Shown here in pieces: positions 2,772 through 51,485 of a DNA stretch of 64,000 nucleotides. The notes below the pieces were generated by a model, which saw only the letters and a list, made by a program, of their open reading frames with translations, was not told the origin of the DNA and made no database searches. The stretch comes from Shigella phage SSG23. Each line of letters begins with the position of its first letter. Within the stretch, counting starts at the first letter, position 1. The stretch is from the sequence record PQ351811; one strand, given 5' to 3'. Both the position numbers and the translations under genes were made by a program.

Positions 2772-4766
2772 TTATGCCTGGTTAGCTGGACCGATAATTT
2801 CGTCAAAATCAGCACCAGTTGCAACAGCAGTGAAATTGAGCATGATATAGTTGATCGATTTTGCTGGTTTGATGAACATACTAGCAACAAATTCGTTACG
2901 ATCAATTACATCCGGCGTGTTGTTCGTGGTGTCGCATTGTACTCGGAAGTCATAAATGCCACCCAGAGAGCGAATCGTGCTGAGGTATTGCGAAACCTCC
3001 ATACGGAAGGAAGCGCGAGTAAAGTTATCGTTGTTTTCAAACAGTTTGTATTTGCTTGAATCGCCGATATTCTTTTTCAGCATATTAAACAGACGACGAA
3101 CGTTAATGCGGTCAAACGGGCTAGGAACAGTCGTAGCGGTTTTATCACCCATCAGGATAAACCCTTCACCGCCAGCACCGATTACCGGGTTAATTGCGGC
3201 TTGATACAGACGATCACGGTGCGCCTTGCGAGGCTCAATTGCCAGCTTAACCACGTTCATGATCTGACCACGGTTATAACCTGCCGGACTCATCCACGGC
3301 TGCGATACAGCATCAGTACGAGCACACAAACCAGCGATATCAGCAGCCAACGGAATCCAACGGTTTACATCGTTATATTTGTCATACTGATATTTGTAGT
3401 TACCATCAATAACCGCGTAAGTGGTATTAATGTTCATGTTGTTTTCATTATAGTTTCCTGAACCTTCGCGCCATGCAATCAGGTTATCAATTGCAGTAGT
3501 CACCGGAATATTAACAACAGTGCTACGCGGCGGAGAAACCATTACTAAGCAATCCTGACGCTCATCACCGATAGAAACAGCATGTTTCTGTACGGTAGAG
3601 AATGCATCACCTTCACCAGCACATGCACCAGCGATCAGAAGGTTTACGTGAATAGATTCACGTTCAGCAAACAGATCCCAGCCTTGCATCATCGCACTAA
3701 CAAACGGATCAGCACCAACACCAGCGGTTGCTTCGTTGGCAGAAACACCACCAGCAAGAGAAATAATGCCACTGAAACCATCTACCCAACCCTGAGCGGT
3801 TGCATAAATGTACTGGCTAGCACCACGAGCAAAGAAGTCGTCCATATAGATAGAATTGCCGTAGACGTCTTTATCTCCTTTCAGAGTAGACAGTACATAG
3901 GATTCTACCACAACACCATCGCGACGAACAATAAACGCATATTGATTATCATTCTGCGGCGCATATGGAATCAGGTTGCGTGCTGCGGTGCGCTCGCCAC
4001 CATAAGGATACATGGTCAGATCCGGTGCAGTATTCTTAAACGCACTACGTGCCAGAATTTCAACTTCCAGCGAGTTGCCAATCTCACCAGCATAGATCGC
4101 GCTTACAGCTGGCATATCATACTTCTTGAGTTTAGTCAAGAAAGTTTGATTCGTGATATTGGCGCGGGAAGTTTCCATGTCAGTTAACAGAAGACCGGAG
4201 TCGACCACAATTCCAGATACAGTGATCGATGCACCTGAGTTACCGCTATCAGAAATGATTTCTACAGTGTATCCTTCCAGTTTTGGATATGCCCCGATTG
4301 TTTTTGCGTGTGCAATCAGCTTACCAGTTGGAATAAAAATACCTTTGATCTTACCTTCCGACGAAATTTTTGTAACCTTTCCGCCAGTTTCAATTTCAGA
4401 ACTTTTGTATTTTACTTTAATTGTATCGCCAACCTTATAGTTTGAACCTTCGTTTGTGATTTCAAACTCGACGTTACCAGCTAGGGTAGTTGCGTTTTTT
4501 GCTTTTTCTTTATTCAGTACACGAACAACACGCAGGTCATTACCGTACTGGAGGAAGTTAGCCCCGCTCATGAAATAGTCTGCGGTGTTATTATCCGGCT
4601 GACCAAATTTATTAACTAATTCAACTTCATTAGTTACTTGAATAATCTGGAAAGCTGGACCCCATTGGAATTTACCTACCAGTGCCGCGCGACCAGTCGC
4701 AGATTGCACAATGGTAGTGGAGAGAGTAGTTTCTTTCGTTTCGAAACCCGGTGATAATAGAGTCAT
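2772..4766 (-). CDS. gp18: tail sheath protein gp18
   Basis: 664 aa (T4 gp18 659 aa); position between terminase and tail tube genes. Confidence 0.85.
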   Translation of the reverse strand: MTLLSPGFETKETTLSTTIVQSATGRAALVGKFQWGPAFQIIQVTNEVELVNKFGQPDNNTADYFMSGANFLQYGNDLRVVRVLNKEKAKNATTLAGNVEFEITNEGSNYKVGDTIKVKYKSSEIETGGKVTKISSEGKIKGIFIPTGKLIAHAKTIGAYPKLEGYTVEIISDSGNSGASITVSGIVVDSGLLLTDMETSRANITNQTFLTKLKKYDMPAVSAIYAGEIGNSLEVEILARSAFKNTAPDLTMYPYGGERTAARNLIPYAPQNDNQYAFIVRRDGVVVESYVLSTLKGDKDVYGNSIYMDDFFARGASQYIYATAQGWVDGFSGIISLAGGVSANEATAGVGADPFVSAMMQGWDLFAERESIHVNLLIAGACAGEGDAFSTVQKHAVSIGDERQDCLVMVSPPRSTVVNIPVTTAIDNLIAWREGSGNYNENNMNINTTYAVIDGNYKYQYDKYNDVNRWIPLAADIAGLCARTDAVSQPWMSPAGYNRGQIMNVVKLAIEPRKAHRDRLYQAAINPVIGAGGEGFILMGDKTATTVPSPFDRINVRRLFNMLKKNIGDSSKYKLFENNDNFTRASFRMEVSQYLSTIRSLGGIYDFRVQCDTTNNTPDVIDRNEFVASMFIKPAKSINYIMLNFTAVATGADFDEIIGPANQA

Positions 4767-30935: not shown

Positions 30936-30964
30936 TTGACAACCATAAACGACTATAGCATAAT
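30936..30964 (+). promoter_or_regulatory. early promoter cassette P1 (TTGACA-N17-CATAAT + conserved leader)
   Basis: GTGTTGACA...TATAGCATAAT, then CACATCGAAACGAAACAC and AGGAGAATCAAAAAAATG. Confidence 0.65.
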
Positions 30965-38808: not shown

Positions 38809-39050
38809 TGTATGTTATGACACCTTATAGTAGTAGATCTTACATCACCCCAAATAAACTGTATAAGTTTACGCCAGATGAAAGAATGTCTACCTACGGT
38901 TACATCAAAGATGATAAAGGATACGAACTTTTTATTTCTCTGAAAAGTTGTGCATACCTTGATGACCGTCCGTGGACACTGATCGAAAAACCAAAACAAC
39001 CTGAGAATAAAGGTCTTTGGAATGTGCTAAAAAAATTCTTGAAAAAGTAG
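38805..39050 (+). CDS. hypothetical protein, YGYIKDD paralog 2
   Basis: ORF 38790-39050 trimmed to ATG overlapping previous stop (ATGA). Confidence 0.5.
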   Translation: MMYVMTPYSSRSYITPNKLYKFTPDERMSTYGYIKDDKGYELFISLKSCAYLDDRPWTLIEKPKQPENKGLWNVLKKFLKK

Positions 39051-39079
39051 TTGACAGCATGAAACGGGGGTAGTAATAT
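39051..39079 (+). promoter_or_regulatory. early promoter cassette P6 with palindromic spacer
   Basis: TTGACA, spacer with GGGGGTA/TACCCCC palindrome, TAATAT, then CATCGAAACAACAACGGAGTATTAAAATG. Confidence 0.6.
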
Positions 39080-42668: not shown

Positions 42669-42736
42669 GAGTTAATCATAAATAAAGCCCCAGATTATAA
42701 ATATAACTGAATATTTTCAATCTGGGGGAATGACTT

Positions 42737-43039
42737 ATGTCATTTATTCGTAAAACTCTAACAGCGGCAATATGCTTGACTGCGGTCGGAAGTGTCAGTG
42801 CTGATCAATATGATCCAACTGGTGACTTTACTGATTATTTCGACGGTGCAATGATAGTATATGTAAACAAAATATCTCCTTCCATTGAAACCAGCCAGAA
42901 ATTTCATGCCCATATTATGAAGATGTATGCTCGTAGTAAATGTATGGATTCTAAGCAGTGTTTTATTATGGGGGAATATGCCGCAAAACAATTTGTTATG
43001 TTGTATAATGTGGAGAATCGAGAACATGAAATTCAGTGA
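42737..43039 (+). CDS. secreted hypothetical protein
   Basis: 100 aa, N-terminal signal peptide (LTAAICLTAVGSVSA), two Cys. Confidence 0.5.
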   Translation: MSFIRKTLTAAICLTAVGSVSADQYDPTGDFTDYFDGAMIVYVNKISPSIETSQKFHAHIMKMYARSKCMDSKQCFIMGEYAAKQFVMLYNVENREHEIQ

Positions 43040-43424
43040 TTTTCGAAAGACGTCCGAAGAGGGGAAAGCTAATAAAGTTGACCGCTTTATCGGTGAATGT
43101 CTGATGAGTGTTACTTATATGCATTCTGCGCATTTTGGGGTGACTGGTCCAGGATCTTATGCAAAACATAAGGCTCTAGAAGAGTTCTATCTTGAAATGC
43201 AAGAATTGGTTGATAATTTCACTGAAACCAATATTGGGATCACTGGTCGTTATCAACCAACGTTGGTCGTCCGCAAGGAGATTAGCGAAATTGCCTATTT
43301 GCAAGAGTTAACGCAAATGGCTAGTGAGATTTATAATGATGTTGATAGCTCGTTACAGAGCGTTTTAGATGATATCAAAGTTCTATGCTTTAAAACAATT
43401 TATAAACTCACTCGACTGGCTTAA
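43026..43424 (+). CDS. Dps/ferritin-like protein
   Basis: ORF trimmed to ATG after GGAG; HSAHFGVTGPGSYAKHKALEEFY...ELVDNFTE resembles the Dps ferroxidase-site pattern. Confidence 0.45.
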   Translation: MKFSDFRKTSEEGKANKVDRFIGECLMSVTYMHSAHFGVTGPGSYAKHKALEEFYLEMQELVDNFTETNIGITGRYQPTLVVRKEISEIAYLQELTQMASEIYNDVDSSLQSVLDDIKVLCFKTIYKLTRLA

Positions 43425-43445: not shown

Positions 43446-45593
43446 ATGCCAGCAGAAATTAAAAACACTACAATTAACTCTCAAATTTGGCTTCCTCATA
43501 CTTTTGAATGTTCGATTGTTGCCGAGTCGGATGACCCGGAGAAAAGACGAAAAGGATATTTATGGAAAAAGAACGATAAGTTGATCACAATGACCGATGG
43601 TCCGTCTTTTCCGCTAAAGTCTGTTAAAGAGGAAGATAAAACAGGTTGGTCTGTTAATGTTCGTGGTTTTGCTCAAGATGATGAAAATCTTTCTGGCGAA
43701 TCCGTAGATATCGGTACGGAAAACTTCACCTTTGAACTTTTTGATAATCCATATGTGGAACATGTATACCCGCCTACGTCTTTTAATATTGGTGATGAAA
43801 TCAAGGCAAAGATTGTTTTTCGTAGTCATATCCAGCCTAATATTTCGGTTGACCTTTATTATAATGATGGTTTGGTTGATTCCGTTGACGGTGATCTGGG
43901 GTTAGACCATCGTGAATTTAAAATTGCAAAATTCGCGTGGCCTGAATTTTCCGGTACATATAAAATGGAATTGAGTGATGAACATGGTGAGGTTAAGTTT
44001 GTATATCCTTTCTATGCAAATATCACTGAAAATAAGGAAGTATTCAACGTACAAAAATATGCACCTGCCTATTTTACAGTAGAGGATGATGCACCGAATC
44101 AGGCGGAATATACTATTGTCCGATATCGACTAGAGCGCAATGATGGTAGTTTGGTTTATGAGTCTAAAGATAAGACTCTATACGTGACTAAACACGCTCA
44201 ACCGTCCGATGCTGGGGTTTATATTGCTTTTGTTCGTGCATATAAGGTTGTTAATGGACCTGGTGCTGGGACCGAATATGTGGATGGTGAAAAACATCGA
44301 TTCACAGTTAACGTAAAAGAAAACGAATTTTTTAGCCGTGATTTTAGTGCTATTGATTTTCGTTATCCTTCTGGGTCTACTGTAAACCTTGATATGCCAG
44401 TGATGCAAGCCGATAGCTCATGGAATCGTCATTATGGTATGCTTACTAACAACGTTTACTTTACGTGGATGCTTGGCGGTAAGAAACTACAAAGTAAAAA
44501 ATATGGTGATGAAGGATATGACCGAATCACATTATCTGGATTGCAATATGATAACAGCGTTGCGCTTCAATTGTTGGTTGCTCCTGCCAATCCAGCGGGT
44601 GAACAGGTGATTCCTAACGGTCGCCCATTATTTTATGATCGTCGTATGCTTGAGATTTATGATAAAGAGTATGATTATCGTAATATTGAAGTGGGTGAAC
44701 CGATTGTTCTCAAGATCGTAGATCCTGAACCGCCAGCTAGTGATGATCCTGAACAAACGCGAACTTTGGTTATCACCAAAAACGACGTTAAAGTAACGGA
44801 ACTTCCACTAGGTACTAAGGAATATAAGATCACCGACTCTGCGGACCGAGACCATAACGGCATCTGGGCGCATGAATATCGTGATAGTCCGAGTAAAGAT
44901 CCATTTAGTGCACATACTGATTTTGATATTGCTGGTCGTTCGACCTATCATGTTGAAGTAGTGCCGAATATGGAGTTTGACGGTCCTCATCCTGTGCAGG
45001 TGACGGAGGGTGATACCCTGACGCTAGAAGCAACCATGCTAAAACCGCCAGCCTCATATGTTCCGACTTATGAGTTTAGTAAAAACGGTGTTAAAATGGA
45101 AATGGAAGACCCAAGAAGTCCGATTTACCGTAAAGCAAACGTTACGCTAGAGGATGCTGGTGTTTATCGATTTGTTGCATTTGCTGATAAAAACAGCAAC
45201 GATGAACTAGATCCTGGCGAGATTGTCGGGTATACAAAATATGTTCAGGTTGTAGTTAATAAACGTCCTGTGCGACCGGATGAACCTAGACCGGAAGTTA
45301 AAATTGTTACTATGTTTAACGAGTTTAGCAAAGGTCGATTTAGTCCGTGTCCGTATTGGGTAATTGATGAGCTTGTCGAATTGATGGAAGACCCGCATGG
45401 CTGGATGGATAAACTTGAAGATTCTGTCTACTATGACTGGCAAATCACTATCTTTAATGAGTTCCTAAAAGGCAAGGATTTGTATCTTCAAGATTCGTGT
45501 AATGGTTACTGGGCGATTGTCCGCCAGAAGGATATGTCTATTGAAACTGGCTATGGTCGATTCAAACACTACTATACAAATGGACGTGAATAA
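43446..45593 (+). CDS. large acidic protein with Ig-like repeat signatures
   Basis: 715 aa; repeated D-x-G-x-Y beta-sandwich-like motifs (PSDAGVYIAFVRAY, LEDAGVYRFVAFAD). Confidence 0.55.
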   Translation: MPAEIKNTTINSQIWLPHTFECSIVAESDDPEKRRKGYLWKKNDKLITMTDGPSFPLKSVKEEDKTGWSVNVRGFAQDDENLSGESVDIGTENFTFELFDNPYVEHVYPPTSFNIGDEIKAKIVFRSHIQPNISVDLYYNDGLVDSVDGDLGLDHREFKIAKFAWPEFSGTYKMELSDEHGEVKFVYPFYANITENKEVFNVQKYAPAYFTVEDDAPNQAEYTIVRYRLERNDGSLVYESKDKTLYVTKHAQPSDAGVYIAFVRAYKVVNGPGAGTEYVDGEKHRFTVNVKENEFFSRDFSAIDFRYPSGSTVNLDMPVMQADSSWNRHYGMLTNNVYFTWMLGGKKLQSKKYGDEGYDRITLSGLQYDNSVALQLLVAPANPAGEQVIPNGRPLFYDRRMLEIYDKEYDYRNIEVGEPIVLKIVDPEPPASDDPEQTRTLVITKNDVKVTELPLGTKEYKITDSADRDHNGIWAHEYRDSPSKDPFSAHTDFDIAGRSTYHVEVVPNMEFDGPHPVQVTEGDTLTLEATMLKPPASYVPTYEFSKNGVKMEMEDPRSPIYRKANVTLEDAGVYRFVAFADKNSNDELDPGEIVGYTKYVQVVVNKRPVRPDEPRPEVKIVTMFNEFSKGRFSPCPYWVIDELVELMEDPHGWMDKLEDSVYYDWQITIFNEFLKGKDLYLQDSCNGYWAIVRQKDMSIETGYGRFKHYYTNGRE

Positions 45594-45602
45594 AACATAA
45601 TC

Positions 45603-45636
45603 AAAAGCCATCCGAAAGGGTGGCTTTTTCGTTTTT
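45603..45636 (+). terminator. rho-independent terminator
   Basis: Hairpin AAGCCATCCGAAAGGGTGGCTT followed by TTTTCGTTTTT. Confidence 0.75.
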
Positions 45637-45641
45637 AGGTG

Positions 45642-45670
45642 TTGACAACCGGATCGTGGTATAGCATAAT
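45642..45670 (+). promoter_or_regulatory. early promoter cassette P7
   Basis: GGTGTTGACA, 17 bp spacer, CATAAT, then CACACATCGACAACAAAAGGAGAACCAAAATG. Confidence 0.65.
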
Positions 45671-46238: not shown

Positions 46239-46585
46239 ACATTGATATTCAGCGATTAATTGATCATCTTCATGCGGGAATACCTTATCATGGCGACGTT
46301 ACCCGCGATATTCTTGATGTTCTGGGATATACCCAGCAAGTGATCAACGAAAAGCAAGCATTAGAATCACGGATCGACGAGGCAATAGGAAACATTGCAA
46401 CCGAAGATGAATTAGATAATCACTTTGGACCTGTTCTCGATGCTCTTATGGCTGCGCGTGATACTAAGCTGAAACAAGATAAACAAGAATTTATCCTTGA
46501 TGGTTTAGCTCGTTATCACAATGCAATTGATATTATGAATAACCAGCATGATTATGCTATTAGTGTTTTGAGGGGTATGGCATGA
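46235..46585 (+). CDS. hypothetical protein
   Basis: 116 aa ORF, overlapping neighbours by 4 nt. Confidence 0.5.
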   Translation: MNIDIQRLIDHLHAGIPYHGDVTRDILDVLGYTQQVINEKQALESRIDEAIGNIATEDELDNHFGPVLDALMAARDTKLKQDKQEFILDGLARYHNAIDIMNNQHDYAISVLRGMA

Positions 46586-46866
46586 AAGACACAAACGAAT
46601 TTAACGGCATTCAGGTAAGCCCGAATTTTATTGTTCCGTCACTGGTGACTAAGCTGAATGGTCATATGGTCGCTTTGTCTTCCACACCGCCAGAATCAGG
46701 AAAGTTTATTACTATCGTAGTTTATGCAGGGCAAATTTTCTCTCATGATTGCTGCATGAAAAATGGTGAACTGATGGTTGCAAATTATGACTACGGCGAC
46801 CTTGATTGGGAAGTTTTAGGTCTGGCTAAAGGTGCTGAAATTCTGGGCTATCTTCGATTAGTTTAA
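46582..46866 (+). CDS. hypothetical protein
   Basis: 94 aa ORF. Confidence 0.5.
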   Translation: MKDTNEFNGIQVSPNFIVPSLVTKLNGHMVALSSTPPESGKFITIVVYAGQIFSHDCCMKNGELMVANYDYGDLDWEVLGLAKGAEILGYLRLV

Positions 46867-46884
46867 AAATTTTCTTAGAAAGTG

Positions 46885-46913
46885 TTGACAGCGATCCGGT
46901 GTTATTGCATAAT
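46885..46913 (+). promoter_or_regulatory. early promoter cassette P8
   Basis: AGTGTTGACA, 17 bp spacer, CATAAT, then CACCCATCGAAACGAGATACAC and GGAGAATCAAAAATG. Confidence 0.65.
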
Positions 46914-46954
46914 ACACCCATCGAAACGAGATACACTTTCTAGGAGAATCAAAA

Positions 46955-47176
46955 ATGGCAACTGTTAAAATTATCAAATCTTCCGCTGGCTTCGGTTTCA
47001 TGCGTGGTGCTAAGTACCCGATGATTATTGAAAACGTTGCCATCGAAGATGGTATGGCTAAAGTGACCAGCCGTCAATTGTTCGAAGCTGGTGTTAAAAC
47101 TGCTGAATCATGGGCGCTTCGCTATCCTAACAAAACATGGTCTTTCTTCCTGAATGGTGAAGCTGAGATCATCTAA
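46955..47176 (+). CDS. hypothetical protein
   Basis: 73 aa ORF after promoter cassette, upstream of gp38-like gene. Confidence 0.5.
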   Translation: MATVKIIKSSAGFGFMRGAKYPMIIENVAIEDGMAKVTSRQLFEAGVKTAESWALRYPNKTWSFFLNGEAEII

Positions 47177-47230
47177 GTAATATTATCAATCAATGCCCCT
47201 TAATTGGGGCTTTTCTTGTGAGGAAACTTT

Positions 47231-48010
47231 ATGGCAATTAAAGCAGGTTGGGTCGGATCATCGGCTGTGTCCGAGACTGGTCAACGGTGGATGAGCGCCG
47301 CAATGCAAGCTGTACGCTTAGGCCGTCCGGCGTATATGTCAGCGATGGTCGGACGCTCTAAAGAGATTCATTATAGCATTGGCGCTAGTAACTCTTACAA
47401 TAAAGACACTCTTATTAACTGGATGAAAGCACAAGGATCTACTCCGGTAGTAATTACTATCACAGGTAATATTGTTTCCCAATCTACTGGCGTTCCTTGT
47501 CTTGATTTCCCTAGCTCACTAACAAATGAATATGTAACACTCATTATTAACTCTGGTGTTCATGTCTGGGGGCGTGGTGGTAATGGTGGCAATAACTCCG
47601 CTGGTGGTGCTGGTGGTAATGCAATTAACAACGGTATAGGCACACGCTTGCGCATCACAAATAACGGCGCTATTTGCGGTGGCGGTGGCGGCGGTGGCGG
47701 CGGGTATTATTCTCCTTTTTCACAAATGAAATTGACTTTTGGTGGAGGGGGCGGTCGTCCATTTGGTGCTGCTGGTGGGTCTGCTAATATGGAACAGGGT
47801 GCTACTGCTGGTACTATTTCCGCGCCAGGTAAAGGGTCTGTCAACGGTGTATATAATGGCGGTAACGGTGGTGATGCTGGTGGTGCTGGTGGTAAATGTA
47901 ATATCCGTGGACAGGGGTCGGAATATAATGGCGGAGCGGCTGGTAAGGCTGTTACTGGCAATGCCCCTCGCTGGGATAAAGTAGGCACGATCTACGGTGC
48001 TCGTGTGTAA
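47231..48010 (+). CDS. gp38-like glycine-rich receptor-binding adhesin
   Basis: 259 aa; N-terminus GWVGSSAVSETGQRWMS and runs GGGGGGGGGYY, FGGGGGRPFG, GGNGGDAGGAGG resemble T2/T6/S16-type gp38 glycine-rich motifs. Confidence 0.55.
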   Translation: MAIKAGWVGSSAVSETGQRWMSAAMQAVRLGRPAYMSAMVGRSKEIHYSIGASNSYNKDTLINWMKAQGSTPVVITITGNIVSQSTGVPCLDFPSSLTNEYVTLIINSGVHVWGRGGNGGNNSAGGAGGNAINNGIGTRLRITNNGAICGGGGGGGGGYYSPFSQMKLTFGGGGGRPFGAAGGSANMEQGATAGTISAPGKGSVNGVYNGGNGGDAGGAGGKCNIRGQGSEYNGGAAGKAVTGNAPRWDKVGTIYGARV

Positions 48011-48016
48011 TTTTAT

Positions 48017-48048
48017 GGGCTATCCTTCGGGGTAGCCTTTTTTGTTTT
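48017..48048 (+). terminator. rho-independent terminator
   Basis: Hairpin GGGCTATCCTTCGGGGTAGCC followed by TTTTTTGTTTT. Confidence 0.75.
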
Positions 48049-48053
48049 GGGTG

Positions 48054-48081
48054 TTGACAAAGATAATCACAATGCTATAAT
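48054..48081 (+). promoter_or_regulatory. early promoter cassette P9 (extended -10)
   Basis: GTGTTGACA, 16 bp spacer, TGCTATAAT, then AAGGAGAATCAAAGATG. Confidence 0.65.
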
Positions 48082-49054: not shown

Positions 49055-49305
49055 TCACCGGATATATTCCATATTCAACGACAAAACACATTGTCGGTTT
49101 TGAAAACATAGAAAAGTCTTGCTTTCCTCTCAAGGTTGAAGTAGACTTTATTACAGCGAACGGATGGGCTTACGTTACCGTGGAAGAGATGAAACGCTTA
49201 GGGTGGGAAAATTGCATACACCTACCGCATCTTATCCTAGATGTTCGCGCTGGTGAGATTGATATTGATGGAAAGATCTATGGAGACAATGTAAATGAAA
49301 ATTGA
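49051..49305 (+). CDS. hypothetical protein
   Basis: 84 aa ORF, translationally coupled. Confidence 0.45.
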   Translation: MITGYIPYSTTKHIVGFENIEKSCFPLKVEVDFITANGWAYVTVEEMKRLGWENCIHLPHLILDVRAGEIDIDGKIYGDNVNEN

Positions 49306-49555
49306 AATTATTGACCGTGCTGGGTATACTTTCATGGAAAAAGTTAAACTTCCTATCATTGTTGAAGGTCGCCCCTACTATCAAGGATTCTTTATAACGA
49401 CCAGAGAACTACGAAAGGCTGGTGTTCCTGTTGAATCCTGTTTCTGTGATGATTATGAATGGTGTTTCAGTGGCTTACGTGCGTGCAAAGCCAAAGAAGA
49501 AGCACGAAAAACATCATGGTTTACTCGCTTTAATAACTGGTTGAGGAAGCTGTGA
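49295..49555 (+). CDS. hypothetical protein
   Basis: 86 aa ORF; GYTF motif shared with next ORF. Confidence 0.45.
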   Translation: MKIEIIDRAGYTFMEKVKLPIIVEGRPYYQGFFITTRELRKAGVPVESCFCDDYEWCFSGLRACKAKEEARKTSWFTRFNNWLRKL

Positions 49556-50488: not shown

Positions 50489-50797
50489 GTGACAACACAA
50501 GATATTGTTAATGTGCTTTATATTTGGCCTACTGGTGCAATGATCTCGTATCTTATATTCTGCTTGTATGCCAGATTCGACAAGAACACGAAAGAGATCG
50601 ATACAGGAGCATTTTGTATTGCTGCAATCATCTGGCCTATAACGTGGACCGTAGTTTATGTTGTTATGTGTTATAAAGGGCTGAAATGTTTTGGTTTGAT
50701 GATCGCGGGTAAACCGGAAGCGAAGCCGCGCAAGCATACCGGATTTACCCCAAAACAAGAAGACGACGGTCGATATAAACCGGAAGAAGATTTTTAA
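50489..50797 (+). CDS. membrane protein (GTG start)
   Basis: ORF 50423-50797 trimmed to GTG after AAGGAGG RBS; hydrophobic helices. Confidence 0.45.
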   Translation: MTTQDIVNVLYIWPTGAMISYLIFCLYARFDKNTKEIDTGAFCIAAIIWPITWTVVYVVMCYKGLKCFGLMIAGKPEAKPRKHTGFTPKQEDDGRYKPEEDF

Positions 50798-50805
50798 AAA
50801 AACAG

Positions 50806-50834
50806 TTGACATGAAAATGCGGTTATCCTATAAT
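50806..50834 (+). promoter_or_regulatory. early promoter cassette P11 (consensus TTGACA-N17-TATAAT)
   Basis: CAGTTGACA, 17 bp spacer, TATAAT, then GAGGATTATATTATG. Confidence 0.7.
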
Positions 50835-50868
50835 AGCCGCATCAAATGAACGATGTGAGGATTATATT

Positions 50869-51177
50869 ATGTTTATCTCTTCTGCTACTCCAGTTAAAGT
50901 TTATGGCGAAACTGTGTATCTTCCGGCTGGCTATCGCTATGTTATTGTTGACCGTTACGGTGTAGTATATGCTTTTAAAGGCCGTCCGGTTGAGATTGAT
51001 GCTGAATATTGTACATGGGGATATAAAGCCGCATACATGGATATTCCTGATCTTGGAGTGCGCTTAGGAAGATTTGATAATGATGTTAAACCATGCTTGA
51101 TTAAGTATGCATCCTATGGTAAAACTGTTAAACCAAATAGCGTCGGCTGGATTGATGACGGCGTTAACGTGAAATAA
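50869..51177 (+). CDS. hypothetical protein
   Basis: 102 aa ORF after promoter. Confidence 0.5.
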   Translation: MFISSATPVKVYGETVYLPAGYRYVIVDRYGVVYAFKGRPVEIDAEYCTWGYKAAYMDIPDLGVRLGRFDNDVKPCLIKYASYGKTVKPNSVGWIDDGVNVK

Positions 51178-51191
51178 TGTGAGGTGAATTT

Positions 51192-51485
51192 ATGTTGTCT
51201 ACTCGTAAAATGGTTGTTGGTGTCGCTGAAAATGCTTTAGAAATCGCTGATGAGGCTTTGACCGTCGCTTATGTTCGACGTGAAGAACTGCTACTGAAAC
51301 ACGCGGACCTGTTGGCTGAAATGAAAGAGACTGCGAAAGCTGGTAAAAGCACGCTCGCGATCGCCATTAAACTTGCTGGTAGTGAAGATGAGATCGTGGA
51401 TATCCACACTAAGATCAAGGAAGTGGAAAAACACTATGAAATGCTGCGACACAATCTTGATGAACTTGGGGTAAATCATGGCTAA
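51192..51485 (+). CDS. hypothetical protein
   Basis: 97 aa helical ORF. Confidence 0.5.
   Translation: MLSTRKMVVGVAENALEIADEALTVAYVRREELLLKHADLLAEMKETAKAGKSTLAIAIKLAGSEDEIVDIHTKIKEVEKHYEMLRHNLDELGVNHG

Follow-up and report, generated by a model that had tools for sequence, protein, structure and literature searches.

In the late tail fibre operon, gene 37 is typically followed directly by gene 38. This synteny is not found in the 64,000-nucleotide stretch of Shigella phage SSG23 (PQ351811) analyzed here (the window), where a gene for a glycine-rich, gp38-like protein stands behind an early-type promoter. This raises the questions of what the protein is, whether its gene has really left the tail fibre operon and how it is expressed. 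The initial annotation, made from the window sequence, proposed a displaced adhesin gene and offered three explanations: a relocated adhesin, a second receptor-binding specificity, or a secreted or decoy form.

Identity of the protein encoded at 47231-48010

The ORF at 47231-48010 (plus strand, ATG start) encodes a 259-aa protein with the N-terminus and glycine runs quoted in the initial annotation. Profile searches matched residues 1-40 to Pfam Gp38_N (PF21721; E 6.1e-18, 40/40 profile positions) and residues 45-259 to Pfam GP38 (PF05268; E 2.6e-73, 218/218 profile positions), and phrog_2056 ("tail fiber protein; host specificity") matched the product with an E value of 1.4e-102. The protein also aligned end to end with gp38 of S16, chain D of the gp37 tip structure (PDB 6F45, Dunne et al. 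2018), over residues 1-257 against 1-247 (E 1e-50; 48.8% identity over 244 aligned pairs), with the glycine runs of the two proteins in register. The resemblance to gp38 adhesins proposed in the initial annotation is thus real and strong. The window is 100% identical to PQ351812, the record of the RB49-like Krischvirus Shigella phage SFHK24, in which the gene is annotated as "tail fiber protein / host specificity". We are highly confident that the phage is RB49-like and that 47231-48010 is its gene 38, encoding its sole long-tail-fibre tip adhesin of the T2/T6/S16 type; no observation speaks against this identity.

Codons 1-110 (47231-47560) cover the conserved gp37-attachment domain, with Gp38_N at residues 1-40, and the start of the receptor-binding domain, while codons 111-240 (47561-47950) form the receptor-specificity part, in which glycine-rich motifs alternate with hypervariable loops. 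Because the full-length identity to a solved gp38 is 49%, the fold was taken as fixed, and we infer a polyglycine-II sandwich; AlphaFold models of RB49-like gp38 have been published (Golomidova 2022). S16 gp38 is a full-length homologue with a matching N-terminal attachment domain and matching glycine-rich motifs. Its loop sequences are different, so its receptor differs as well.

Several related records carry annotations such as "distal long tail fiber assembly catalyst" and "tail assembly protein" (AY343333, HE978309, MT764208), which would make the product a T4-type gp38, that is, a non-structural chaperone for gp37 assembly. We consider this very improbable. The protein has a full glycine-rich receptor-binding domain and matches the S16 adhesin from end to end, and the note in the RB49 record itself reads "similar to T2 and RB69 gp38 adhesin". 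The T4 arrangement is also different, with the adhesin function residing in the C-terminal domain of gp37 (Trojet 2011). Moreover, gp37 of SFHK24 (979 aa) has an intramolecular chaperone of its own, a Peptidase_S74 domain at residues 871-930, and the C-terminal region including this domain matches 6F45_A (E 1.2e-4). The partner gp37 that goes with an adhesin-type gp38, ending in a chaperone domain that cleaves itself off, is therefore present.

The tip adhesin reading allows a mechanism to be drawn by homology from the solved S16 gp37-gp38 complex and RB49 genetics. In this mechanism, gp37 would trimerize and shed its own C-terminal S74 chaperone domain, after which the conserved N-terminal domain of a single gp38 monomer would dock on the gp37 tip thus exposed, leaving the C-terminal polyglycine-rich domain to present the receptor-binding hypervariable loops. 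Six copies of gp38 are needed per phage particle. The gene is the host-range determinant, although several Krischvirus records label it "hypothetical", "tail assembly protein" or "assembly catalyst", and in this role it matters for choosing or engineering Krischvirus phages for therapy.

Gene 38 is displaced from the long tail fibre operon

To place gene 38 in its genome, the whole SFHK24 genome was rebuilt from the window and four further pieces (168,820 bp). In record coordinates, gene 38 lies at 50572-51351 (+) and gene 37 at 106102-109044 (-), the latter within a gene 34-37 operon (106102-115721) located outside the window, about 55 kb away and on the opposite strand. The displacement is real, since gene 37 is not immediately upstream of gene 38, and the gene has moved into an early-orientation hyperplastic region. 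The whole 1.8-kb gene 38 stretch was found colinear in 43 phage records by sequence search, and the displaced position is common to the whole genus Krischvirus. The earlier statement that the gene is far from any tail fibre gene applies to the long tail fibre genes 34-37 only, because the window does contain the fibritin gene, a gene annotated as "tail collar fiber protein" that is probably g12, and another for a tail fiber chaperone that is probably gp57A.

The distance from gene 37 had prompted the idea of an additional receptor-binding protein, conferring a second specificity beside a canonical adhesin at gene 37, and duplicated fibre genes do occur in some T4-like phages (Trojet 2011). However, a local tblastn of the rebuilt 168,820-bp genome with gp38 as query returned gene 38 as the single gp38, with only one other, meaningless match (E 3.3). 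The gene 34-37 operon is followed by a 78-aa ORF and then by a holin gene. This ORF, occupying the canonical slot, matches phrog_402 alone (function unassigned) and has neither a Pfam match nor similarity to gp38, so no gene 38 remnant was detected after gene 37. Across the phage collection, 790 gp38 matches fell in 782 records, which makes one gp38 per genome the rule. A second specificity thus has next to no probability and is refuted at the sequence level by the lone gp38.

Just as improbable is a secreted, decoy or other non-virion early protein, for instance one that masks the receptor for superinfection exclusion, as an early-type promoter and the surrounding early ORFs could suggest. 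The product begins with the conserved gp37-attachment domain, which aligns with 6F45_D starting at residue 1, and inspection by eye revealed neither a signal peptide at the N-terminus nor a hydrophobic signal-like segment in the sequence. In addition, host-range mutations in the RB49 orthologue shift adsorption specificity, which is the behavior of a virion adhesin. A relocated adhesin is the right choice among the three explanations first offered.

This displacement is correct but ordinary, because it has been described for RB49 and its relatives since 2002, as indicated by the GenBank annotation of RB49 and by Trojet 2011, which reports, citing Desplats 2002, that gene 38 is displaced from gene 37 in RB49. 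The promoter and terminator layout was published in 2006 (Nolan 2006). The novelty implied by the initial annotation is accordingly not upheld. In RB49 (AAL15128; AY343333 45367-46143), gene 38 is annotated at the matching locus, between rI and dam/49, and RB49 and the Krischvirus orthologues (GEC-3S, JK32, Cognac49, Whisky49, Brandy49, kaaroe and others) share with the present phage the early promoter, the 73-aa ORF, the weak hairpin, the strong terminator and the next promoter, with gene 38 likewise in single copy and far from gene 37.

Organization of the gene 38 transcription unit

The unit starts with a sigma70-type early promoter at 46885-46913 (+; TTGACA-17 nt-CATAAT, 11/12 match), which is the counterpart of RB49 Pe:46502 (Nolan 2006 supplement) and an annotated promoter in GEC-3S. 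An AT-rich stretch lies upstream of it (about 46864-46884), and 28 of its 29 positions are invariant in seven Krischvirus genomes. Promoters of such quality number 24 on the plus strand of the window versus one on the minus strand, so the early-type promoters here are not random. The first gene of the unit is a 73-aa ORF without assigned function (46955-47176, +), an orthologue of RB49 ORF080c that matches phrog_7345 (E 5e-34) and no Pfam family, and that has a mean nucleotide identity of 97.7% in the seven genomes. A paralogue, also matching phrog_7345, is present at 49295-49555.

Between this ORF and gene 38 lies a weak terminator-like hairpin (47195-47217, +; GCCCC-TTAATT-GGGGC with a 5-bp stem, followed by TTTTCTT), which ends 2 nt before the Shine-Dalgarno sequence GAGGA (47220-47224, +), itself 6 nt before the ATG. 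Both the hairpin and the Shine-Dalgarno sequence are invariant in the seven genomes. The hairpin folds with -11.2 kcal/mol (z -2.3; equalled by 3 of 200 shuffled sequences) and carries a terminator annotation in GEC-3S, and its RB49 counterpart, with a 5-bp stem, has a TransTerm confidence of 90. It is probably an attenuator. No promoter follows it, and the only candidate for an internal gene 38 promoter within the 73-aa ORF (47037-47064, 9/12) was no better than the shuffled background.

The unit ends at a strong intrinsic terminator (48017-48048, +) with a 9-bp stem, a UUCG loop and a T-run, whose stem-loop (48017-48038) folds with -14.7 kcal/mol (z -4.1; 0/200 shuffles fold as well) and whose RB49 counterpart has a TransTerm confidence of 100. 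The next early promoter, at 48054-48081 (+; TTGACA-16-TATAAT, 12/12, extended TG), corresponds to RB49 Pe:45336 and drives the next ORF block. Both boundaries of the two-gene unit first described, the consensus promoter and the terminator, are hence genuine, but the unit is not uninterrupted, because the hairpin separates the 73-aa ORF from gene 38.

Expression of gene 38

We infer that transcription of gene 38 most likely begins at the sigma70-type promoter (46885) of the two-gene unit, in which gene 38 comes second; the promoter, hairpin, Shine-Dalgarno sequence and terminator of the unit are all invariant. Transcription would read through the hairpin at 47195-47217, which would lower the level of gene 38 expression relative to the 73-aa ORF, and the gp38 protein would persist until tail fibre assembly. 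Against this route, the hairpin could terminate most transcripts before gene 38, and T4-like phages do not typically make virion proteins from early promoters. On the RB49 map, the order is Pe:46502, a weak terminator, gene 38 and a strong terminator, and gene 38 has no predicted late promoter (Nolan 2006). For RB49, neither a middle-promoter consensus nor a motA orthologue was found. Our literature search, which did not take in the RB49 transcription study of Desplats 2002, retrieved no RB49 transcriptome or timing data and no Krischvirus transcript or proteome data.

Alternatively, gene 38 might be expressed late, either by read-through from the promoter before rI or from an unrecognized non-canonical late promoter, which would make the early promoter irrelevant to adhesin supply. 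The late-promoter motif TATAAATA at 42696-42703 (+), equivalent to RB49 Pl:48756, precedes rI (42737-43039) and is the only late motif upstream of gene 38 on the same strand, and every ORF from rI to gene 38 lies on one strand. However, transcripts from this site would have to cross 4.5 kb in this phage and get past both the hairpin at 47195 and a strong terminator (45603-45628; -16.6 kcal/mol). A late motif of the form (T/A)ATAAATA was not found shortly upstream of gene 38 or its operon. Between 45000 and the gene 38 start, TATAAATA does not occur exactly, or with one mismatch in a plausible position, and the sole one-mismatch site, TATGAATA at 46534, has its mismatch in the core. An exclusively late supply is thus possible though unlikely, and early transcription from 46885 is the preferred reading, to which late read-through from the rI promoter may contribute some transcript.

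Allelic variation and receptor specificity

Across the seven genomes, codons 1-110 of gene 38 have a mean nucleotide identity of 95.2%, whereas codons 111-240 average 74.1% with a minimum of 55.1%. Overall, the attachment domain and the regulatory elements are 95-98% identical versus 74% for codons 111-240. Indels are confined to the segments between the glycine runs, and the variation is concentrated in these hypervariable segments, as is characteristic of this type of adhesin. The GEC-3S protein is 98% identical to that encoded here. RB49 gp38 is 85% identical, with the first ~110 residues being identical, and it differs only allelically, in the hypervariable loops, where the present protein has a 5-residue insertion (YYSPFSQMKLT versus NRGRLV in RB49) and a 4-residue deletion.

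The loops match not those of RB49 but those of slur11 (LN881734), a Tequatrovirus with a T2/T6-type gp38. The slur11 protein shows 89% aa identity and identical hypervariable loops, and about 38 nt of DNA are identical. Slur11 also has a hairpin just upstream of the gene 38 ribosome-binding site, as here. In contrast, gene 38 of slur11 is located in the canonical late operon g37-g38-t, whereas the present gene follows an early promoter some 55 kb from gene 37 and on the opposite strand. The first ~45 residues of slur11 gp38, the gp37-docking part, differ from those of the present protein, which are of the RB49 type.

RB49 gp38 recognizes OmpA and some O-antigens, and OmpA was assigned as the RB49 receptor in genome-wide screens. 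RB49 gp38 host-range mutants carry E230K or E230K together with Y231S, and an ompA knockout is resistant (Golomidova 2022). Since the loops encoded here differ from those of RB49, the receptor preference of this allele, judged from its sequence, may differ as well; if specificity is set by the loops, the receptor would be expected to be that of slur11.

Relation to PeSL cassettes

The promoter-early stem-loop (PeSL) cassette was defined by Arbiol 2010, in work on the hyperplastic regions of RB49 and phi1 that are also treated in Comeau 2014; gene 38 of RB49 is discussed in neither paper. The 3' boundary of gene 38 is a typical PeSL, with the stem-loop at 48017-48038 followed by the promoter at 48054-48081, and a further PeSL lies at 45603-45670 (stem-loop 45603-45628, promoter at 45642). 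Strong sigma70 consensus with AT-rich upstream sequence characterizes both the promoter at 46885-46913 (11/12) and that at 48054-48081 (12/12). The 5' side of the unit is unlike these cassettes, in that no stem-loop lies immediately upstream of the 46885 promoter and the 47195 hairpin lacks a following promoter. Moreover, in the published descriptions PeSL cassettes flank ORFans that are mostly not essential, whereas the array here includes an essential virion gene.

It is conceivable, though improbable, that the PeSL array turned the sole adhesin gene into an early-transcribed, attenuator-dosed host-range cassette, movable between co-infecting phages via PeSL recombination (mini-circles), of which the Tequatrovirus-like loops would be a trace. 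All Krischvirus genomes examined have the gene 38 unit in colinear arrangement, so cassette gain or loss was not seen at this locus. As a separate observation, the nucleotide search with the 1.8-kb stretch gave two to three places of matching DNA in some records, probably on account of the repeated PeSL promoters.

Gene 38 is predicted to encode a full-length tail fibre tip adhesin

The 259-aa ORF reported by the initial annotation at 47231-48010 on the plus strand (g38) is present, with an ATG start, the N-terminus MAIKAGWVGSSAVSETGQRWMS and several polyglycine runs in the C-terminal half of its product, gp38. The proposed resemblance to T2/T6/S16-type gp38 proved correct, as gp38 matched Pfam GP38 (PF05268; E 2.6e-73, 218/218 profile positions) and Gp38_N (PF21721; E 6.1e-18, 40/40 positions), PHROG 2056 'tail fiber protein; host specificity' (E 1.4e-102) and, in the solved tip complex of gp37 and gp38 from Salmonella phage S16, the adhesin chain (6F45_D; E 1e-50, residues 1-257 aligned to 1-247). 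Identity to 6F45_D is 48.8% over 244 aligned positions, with the glycine runs in register. All sequence tests agree in identifying the predicted product as a full-length gp38 adhesin. By homology, gp37 would trimerize and shed its S74 chaperone domain by cleavage, one gp38 monomer would dock on the gp37 tip via its N-terminal domain, and the C-terminal glycine-rich domain would present variable loops to the receptor. In RB49, the sole changes in host-range mutants were E230K or E230K+Y231S in gp38, an ompA knockout was resistant, and some O-antigens act as receptors (Golomidova et al. 2022, PMC9569957); a 2026 preprint using genome-wide screens gives OmpA as the RB49 receptor.

Labels of this host-range gene are inconsistent between Krischvirus records. 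The product is a 'hypothetical protein' in the Brandy, Cognac and Whisky records, and in that of JEP8 (MT764208; segment L013, 1004-1711) it is named 'tail assembly protein' and starts internally, 72 nt 3' of the conserved ATG. The label 'assembly catalyst', used in some records after T4 nomenclature, does not fit a protein with a complete adhesin domain.

Gene 38 is displaced from the long-tail-fibre operon

Shigella phage SFHK24 (PQ351812; Straboviridae, Krischvirus) carries the g38 stretch with 100% identity, and RB49, GEC-3S, JK32, the 'Makalu' phages, Cognac, Whisky, Brandy and others carry it with 90-97%; the whole 1.8 kb is colinear in 43 phage records. In the complete genome of 168,820 bp, rebuilt by joining the window to four further segments, tblastn with gp38 found a single copy, g38 at 47231-48010. 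The claimed remoteness from tail fibre genes was borne out for those of the long tail fibre: the g34, g35, g36 and g37 operon lies at 106102-115721 of PQ351812 on the opposite strand, with ~54.8 kb between the end of g38 and g37. The usual g38 slot, between g37 and holin t, is taken by a 78-aa ORF (PQ351812 105820-106059, minus strand; 38821-39060 of segment L004). This ORF has no Pfam match and no similarity to gp38; its only match is phrog_402 (E 5e-20), a family of unknown function, and it corresponds to the 'small ORF of unknown function' that Trojet 2011 mentions for RB49. Moreover, the 979-aa gp37 carries a Peptidase_S74 intramolecular chaperone domain (residues 871-930) and matches the 6F45 chain of S16 gp37 in its C-terminal region, indicating that the genome encodes a partner on which a gp38-type adhesin can dock.

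Among the readings offered by the initial annotation, that of a relocated adhesin is correct, the only gp38 being of adhesin type and ~54.8 kb from g37. A second receptor specificity fails because the rebuilt genome holds one gp38 by tblastn; one per genome is the norm in the phage collection (790 matches in 782 records). A secreted or decoy form is wrong because gp38 begins with the gp37-attachment domain, in which no signal peptide is visible by eye. The displacement is confirmed, yet already known: the RB49 GenBank record names the orthologue gene 38 at the equivalent position, flanked by rI/rI.-1 and the dam/gene 49 region, with the note 'similar to T2 and RB69 gp38 adhesin', and Trojet et al. 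2011 described the displaced RB49 gene in print.

Expression signals around gene 38

The early promoter claimed upstream is real (TTGACA-17-CATAAT, 46885-46913, plus strand, 11/12 match), as is the terminator 3' of g38 (48017-48038, plus strand; 9-bp stem, UUCG loop and T-run, -14.7 kcal/mol, z -4.1), which is directly followed by another plus-strand promoter (48054-48081, 12/12). Sigma70 promoters of at least 11/12 number 24 on the plus and 1 on the minus strand of the window, the former nearly all within 27-63 kb, a bias which argues against chance matches. The bounds of the promoter-to-terminator unit stand, but a hairpin inside it had been overlooked (GCCCC-TTAATT-GGGGC followed by TTTTCTT, 47195-47217; -11.2 kcal/mol, z -2.3). 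Located between g38 and the 73-aa ORF directly upstream, it has a 5-bp GC stem, ends 2 nt short of the g38 Shine-Dalgarno sequence and is clearly weaker than the two other nearby terminators. For RB49, supplementary tables in Nolan et al. 2006 (PMC1524935) give the order Pe:46502, ORF080c, terminator (confidence 90, 5-bp stem), 38, terminator (confidence 100, 9-bp stem), Pe:45336, and the GEC-3S record annotates the same promoter and terminators as found at SFHK24 g38.

Arbiol et al. 2010 described RB49/phi1 hyperplastic regions as arrays of PeSLs, in which an early promoter is paired with a stem-loop terminator and through which mostly non-essential ORFs are shuffled as modules; gene 38 is not discussed in the PeSL papers. 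In the window, g38 sits within a PeSL-type array, and the promoters at 30936, 45642, 48054 and 58680 have a GC stem-loop and T-run directly 5', as in that arrangement. Typical PeSLs are found at the g38 3' boundary (48017-48081) and at 45603-45670, whereas the 46885 promoter lacks a stem-loop. All Krischviruses examined have the g38 unit in colinear form, so the locus shows no trace of cassettes having been gained or lost.

No transcript-timing data for g38 were found in the literature on RB49-like phages. Exact and one-mismatch scans found no late promoter motif on the g38 strand within 4.5 kb upstream, a site at 46534 with a core mismatch aside, and neither a middle-promoter consensus nor a motA orthologue has been found in RB49. 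Our best inference, at roughly even odds, is that g38 transcription would start at the sigma70-type promoter at 46885 and partially read through the weak, invariant hairpin at 47195-47217, acting as an attenuator, and that gp38 would then be made and wait for gp37. Alternatively, g38 could be transcribed late from the rI promoter at 42696; its RB49 counterpart ahead of rI, Pl:48756, is the sole late promoter upstream on the gene 38 strand (PMC1524935). However, such a transcript would have to pass a strong terminator (45603-45628, -16.6 kcal/mol) as well as the weak hairpin, and we regard this route as unlikely.

In Tequatrovirus slur11 (LN881734), a GC-rich hairpin AGAGGGCTTCGGCCCTCT between g37 and g38 (~4440-4479 of segment L008) lies just 5' of the g38 ribosome-binding site, as does GCCCCTTAATTGGGGC (47195-47210) at the displaced Krischvirus locus. 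Their positions are alike but their sequences unrelated, which may reflect a common need to damp or stabilize g38 expression, or coincidence. The 73-aa ORF (46955-47176, plus strand), probably co-transcribed with g38 and found beside it in 7/7 aligned Krischvirus genomes, and an 86-aa ORF 2 kb downstream (49295-49555, plus strand) both match phrog_7345 (E 5e-34 and 8e-36), indicating that they are paralogues in one hyperplastic region.

Sequence variation of gene 38

Across seven Krischvirus genomes, the promoter, the 73-aa ORF, the hairpin-bearing intergenic region, g38 codons 1-110, its last 20 codons and the terminator are 95-98% identical, while codons 111-240 average 74% (minimum 55%), with indels solely between glycine runs. 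This pattern fits a model in which gp38 would dock by its N-terminus and bind by its loops.

Residues 1-110 of SFHK24/GEC-3S gp38 are identical to RB49 gp38, and the hypervariable loops (YYSPFSQMKLT; SVNGVYNGGNGGDAGGAGGKCNIRGQGS; 47561-47950) match slur11 gp38, whose gene (L008 4480-5265) is 89% identical overall at the amino acid level. About 38 nt near 47705-47745 are identical to slur11, a tract in which RB49 lacks 15 nt and otherwise differs in sequence. As judged from these alignments, the SFHK24/GEC-3S allele is a cross-genus mosaic. The slur11 g38 occupies the canonical g37-g38-t slot, unlike the displaced Krischvirus gene, and the two genera have apparently swapped specificity loops despite the differing loci.

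The rI region and an upstream insertion

A 100-aa rI orthologue (MSFIRKTLTAAICLTAVGS..., 42737-43039, plus strand) is absent from the SFHK24 annotation, which at 42687-43424 calls a 51-aa ORF on the opposite strand in its place, extends the start of the Dps-like rI.-1 (start 43026) upstream and labels it 'starvation-inducible transcriptional regulator'. The late promoter ahead of rI, TATAAATA (42696-42703, plus strand), lies within an inverted repeat, CCCCAGAT...ATCTGGGG (42688-42728). Directly 3' of rI.-1 is a 715-aa Ig-like ORF (43446-45593, plus strand), an insertion relative to RB49; with no promoter in between, transcription from the rI late promoter probably extends into it. The ORF matches an Ig-like domain weakly (Ig_3, E 3e-4), its residues 512-698 match phrog_1149 'Hoc-like head decoration' (E 3e-9), and its product may decorate the virion or bind a surface. 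Just five phage records contain the ORF at full length (e.g. UPWr_E1, 98.9%). In most of the other Krischviruses, RB49 among them, codons 6-41 (36 codons) survive unannotated, and Phi1 retains the last 68 codons.
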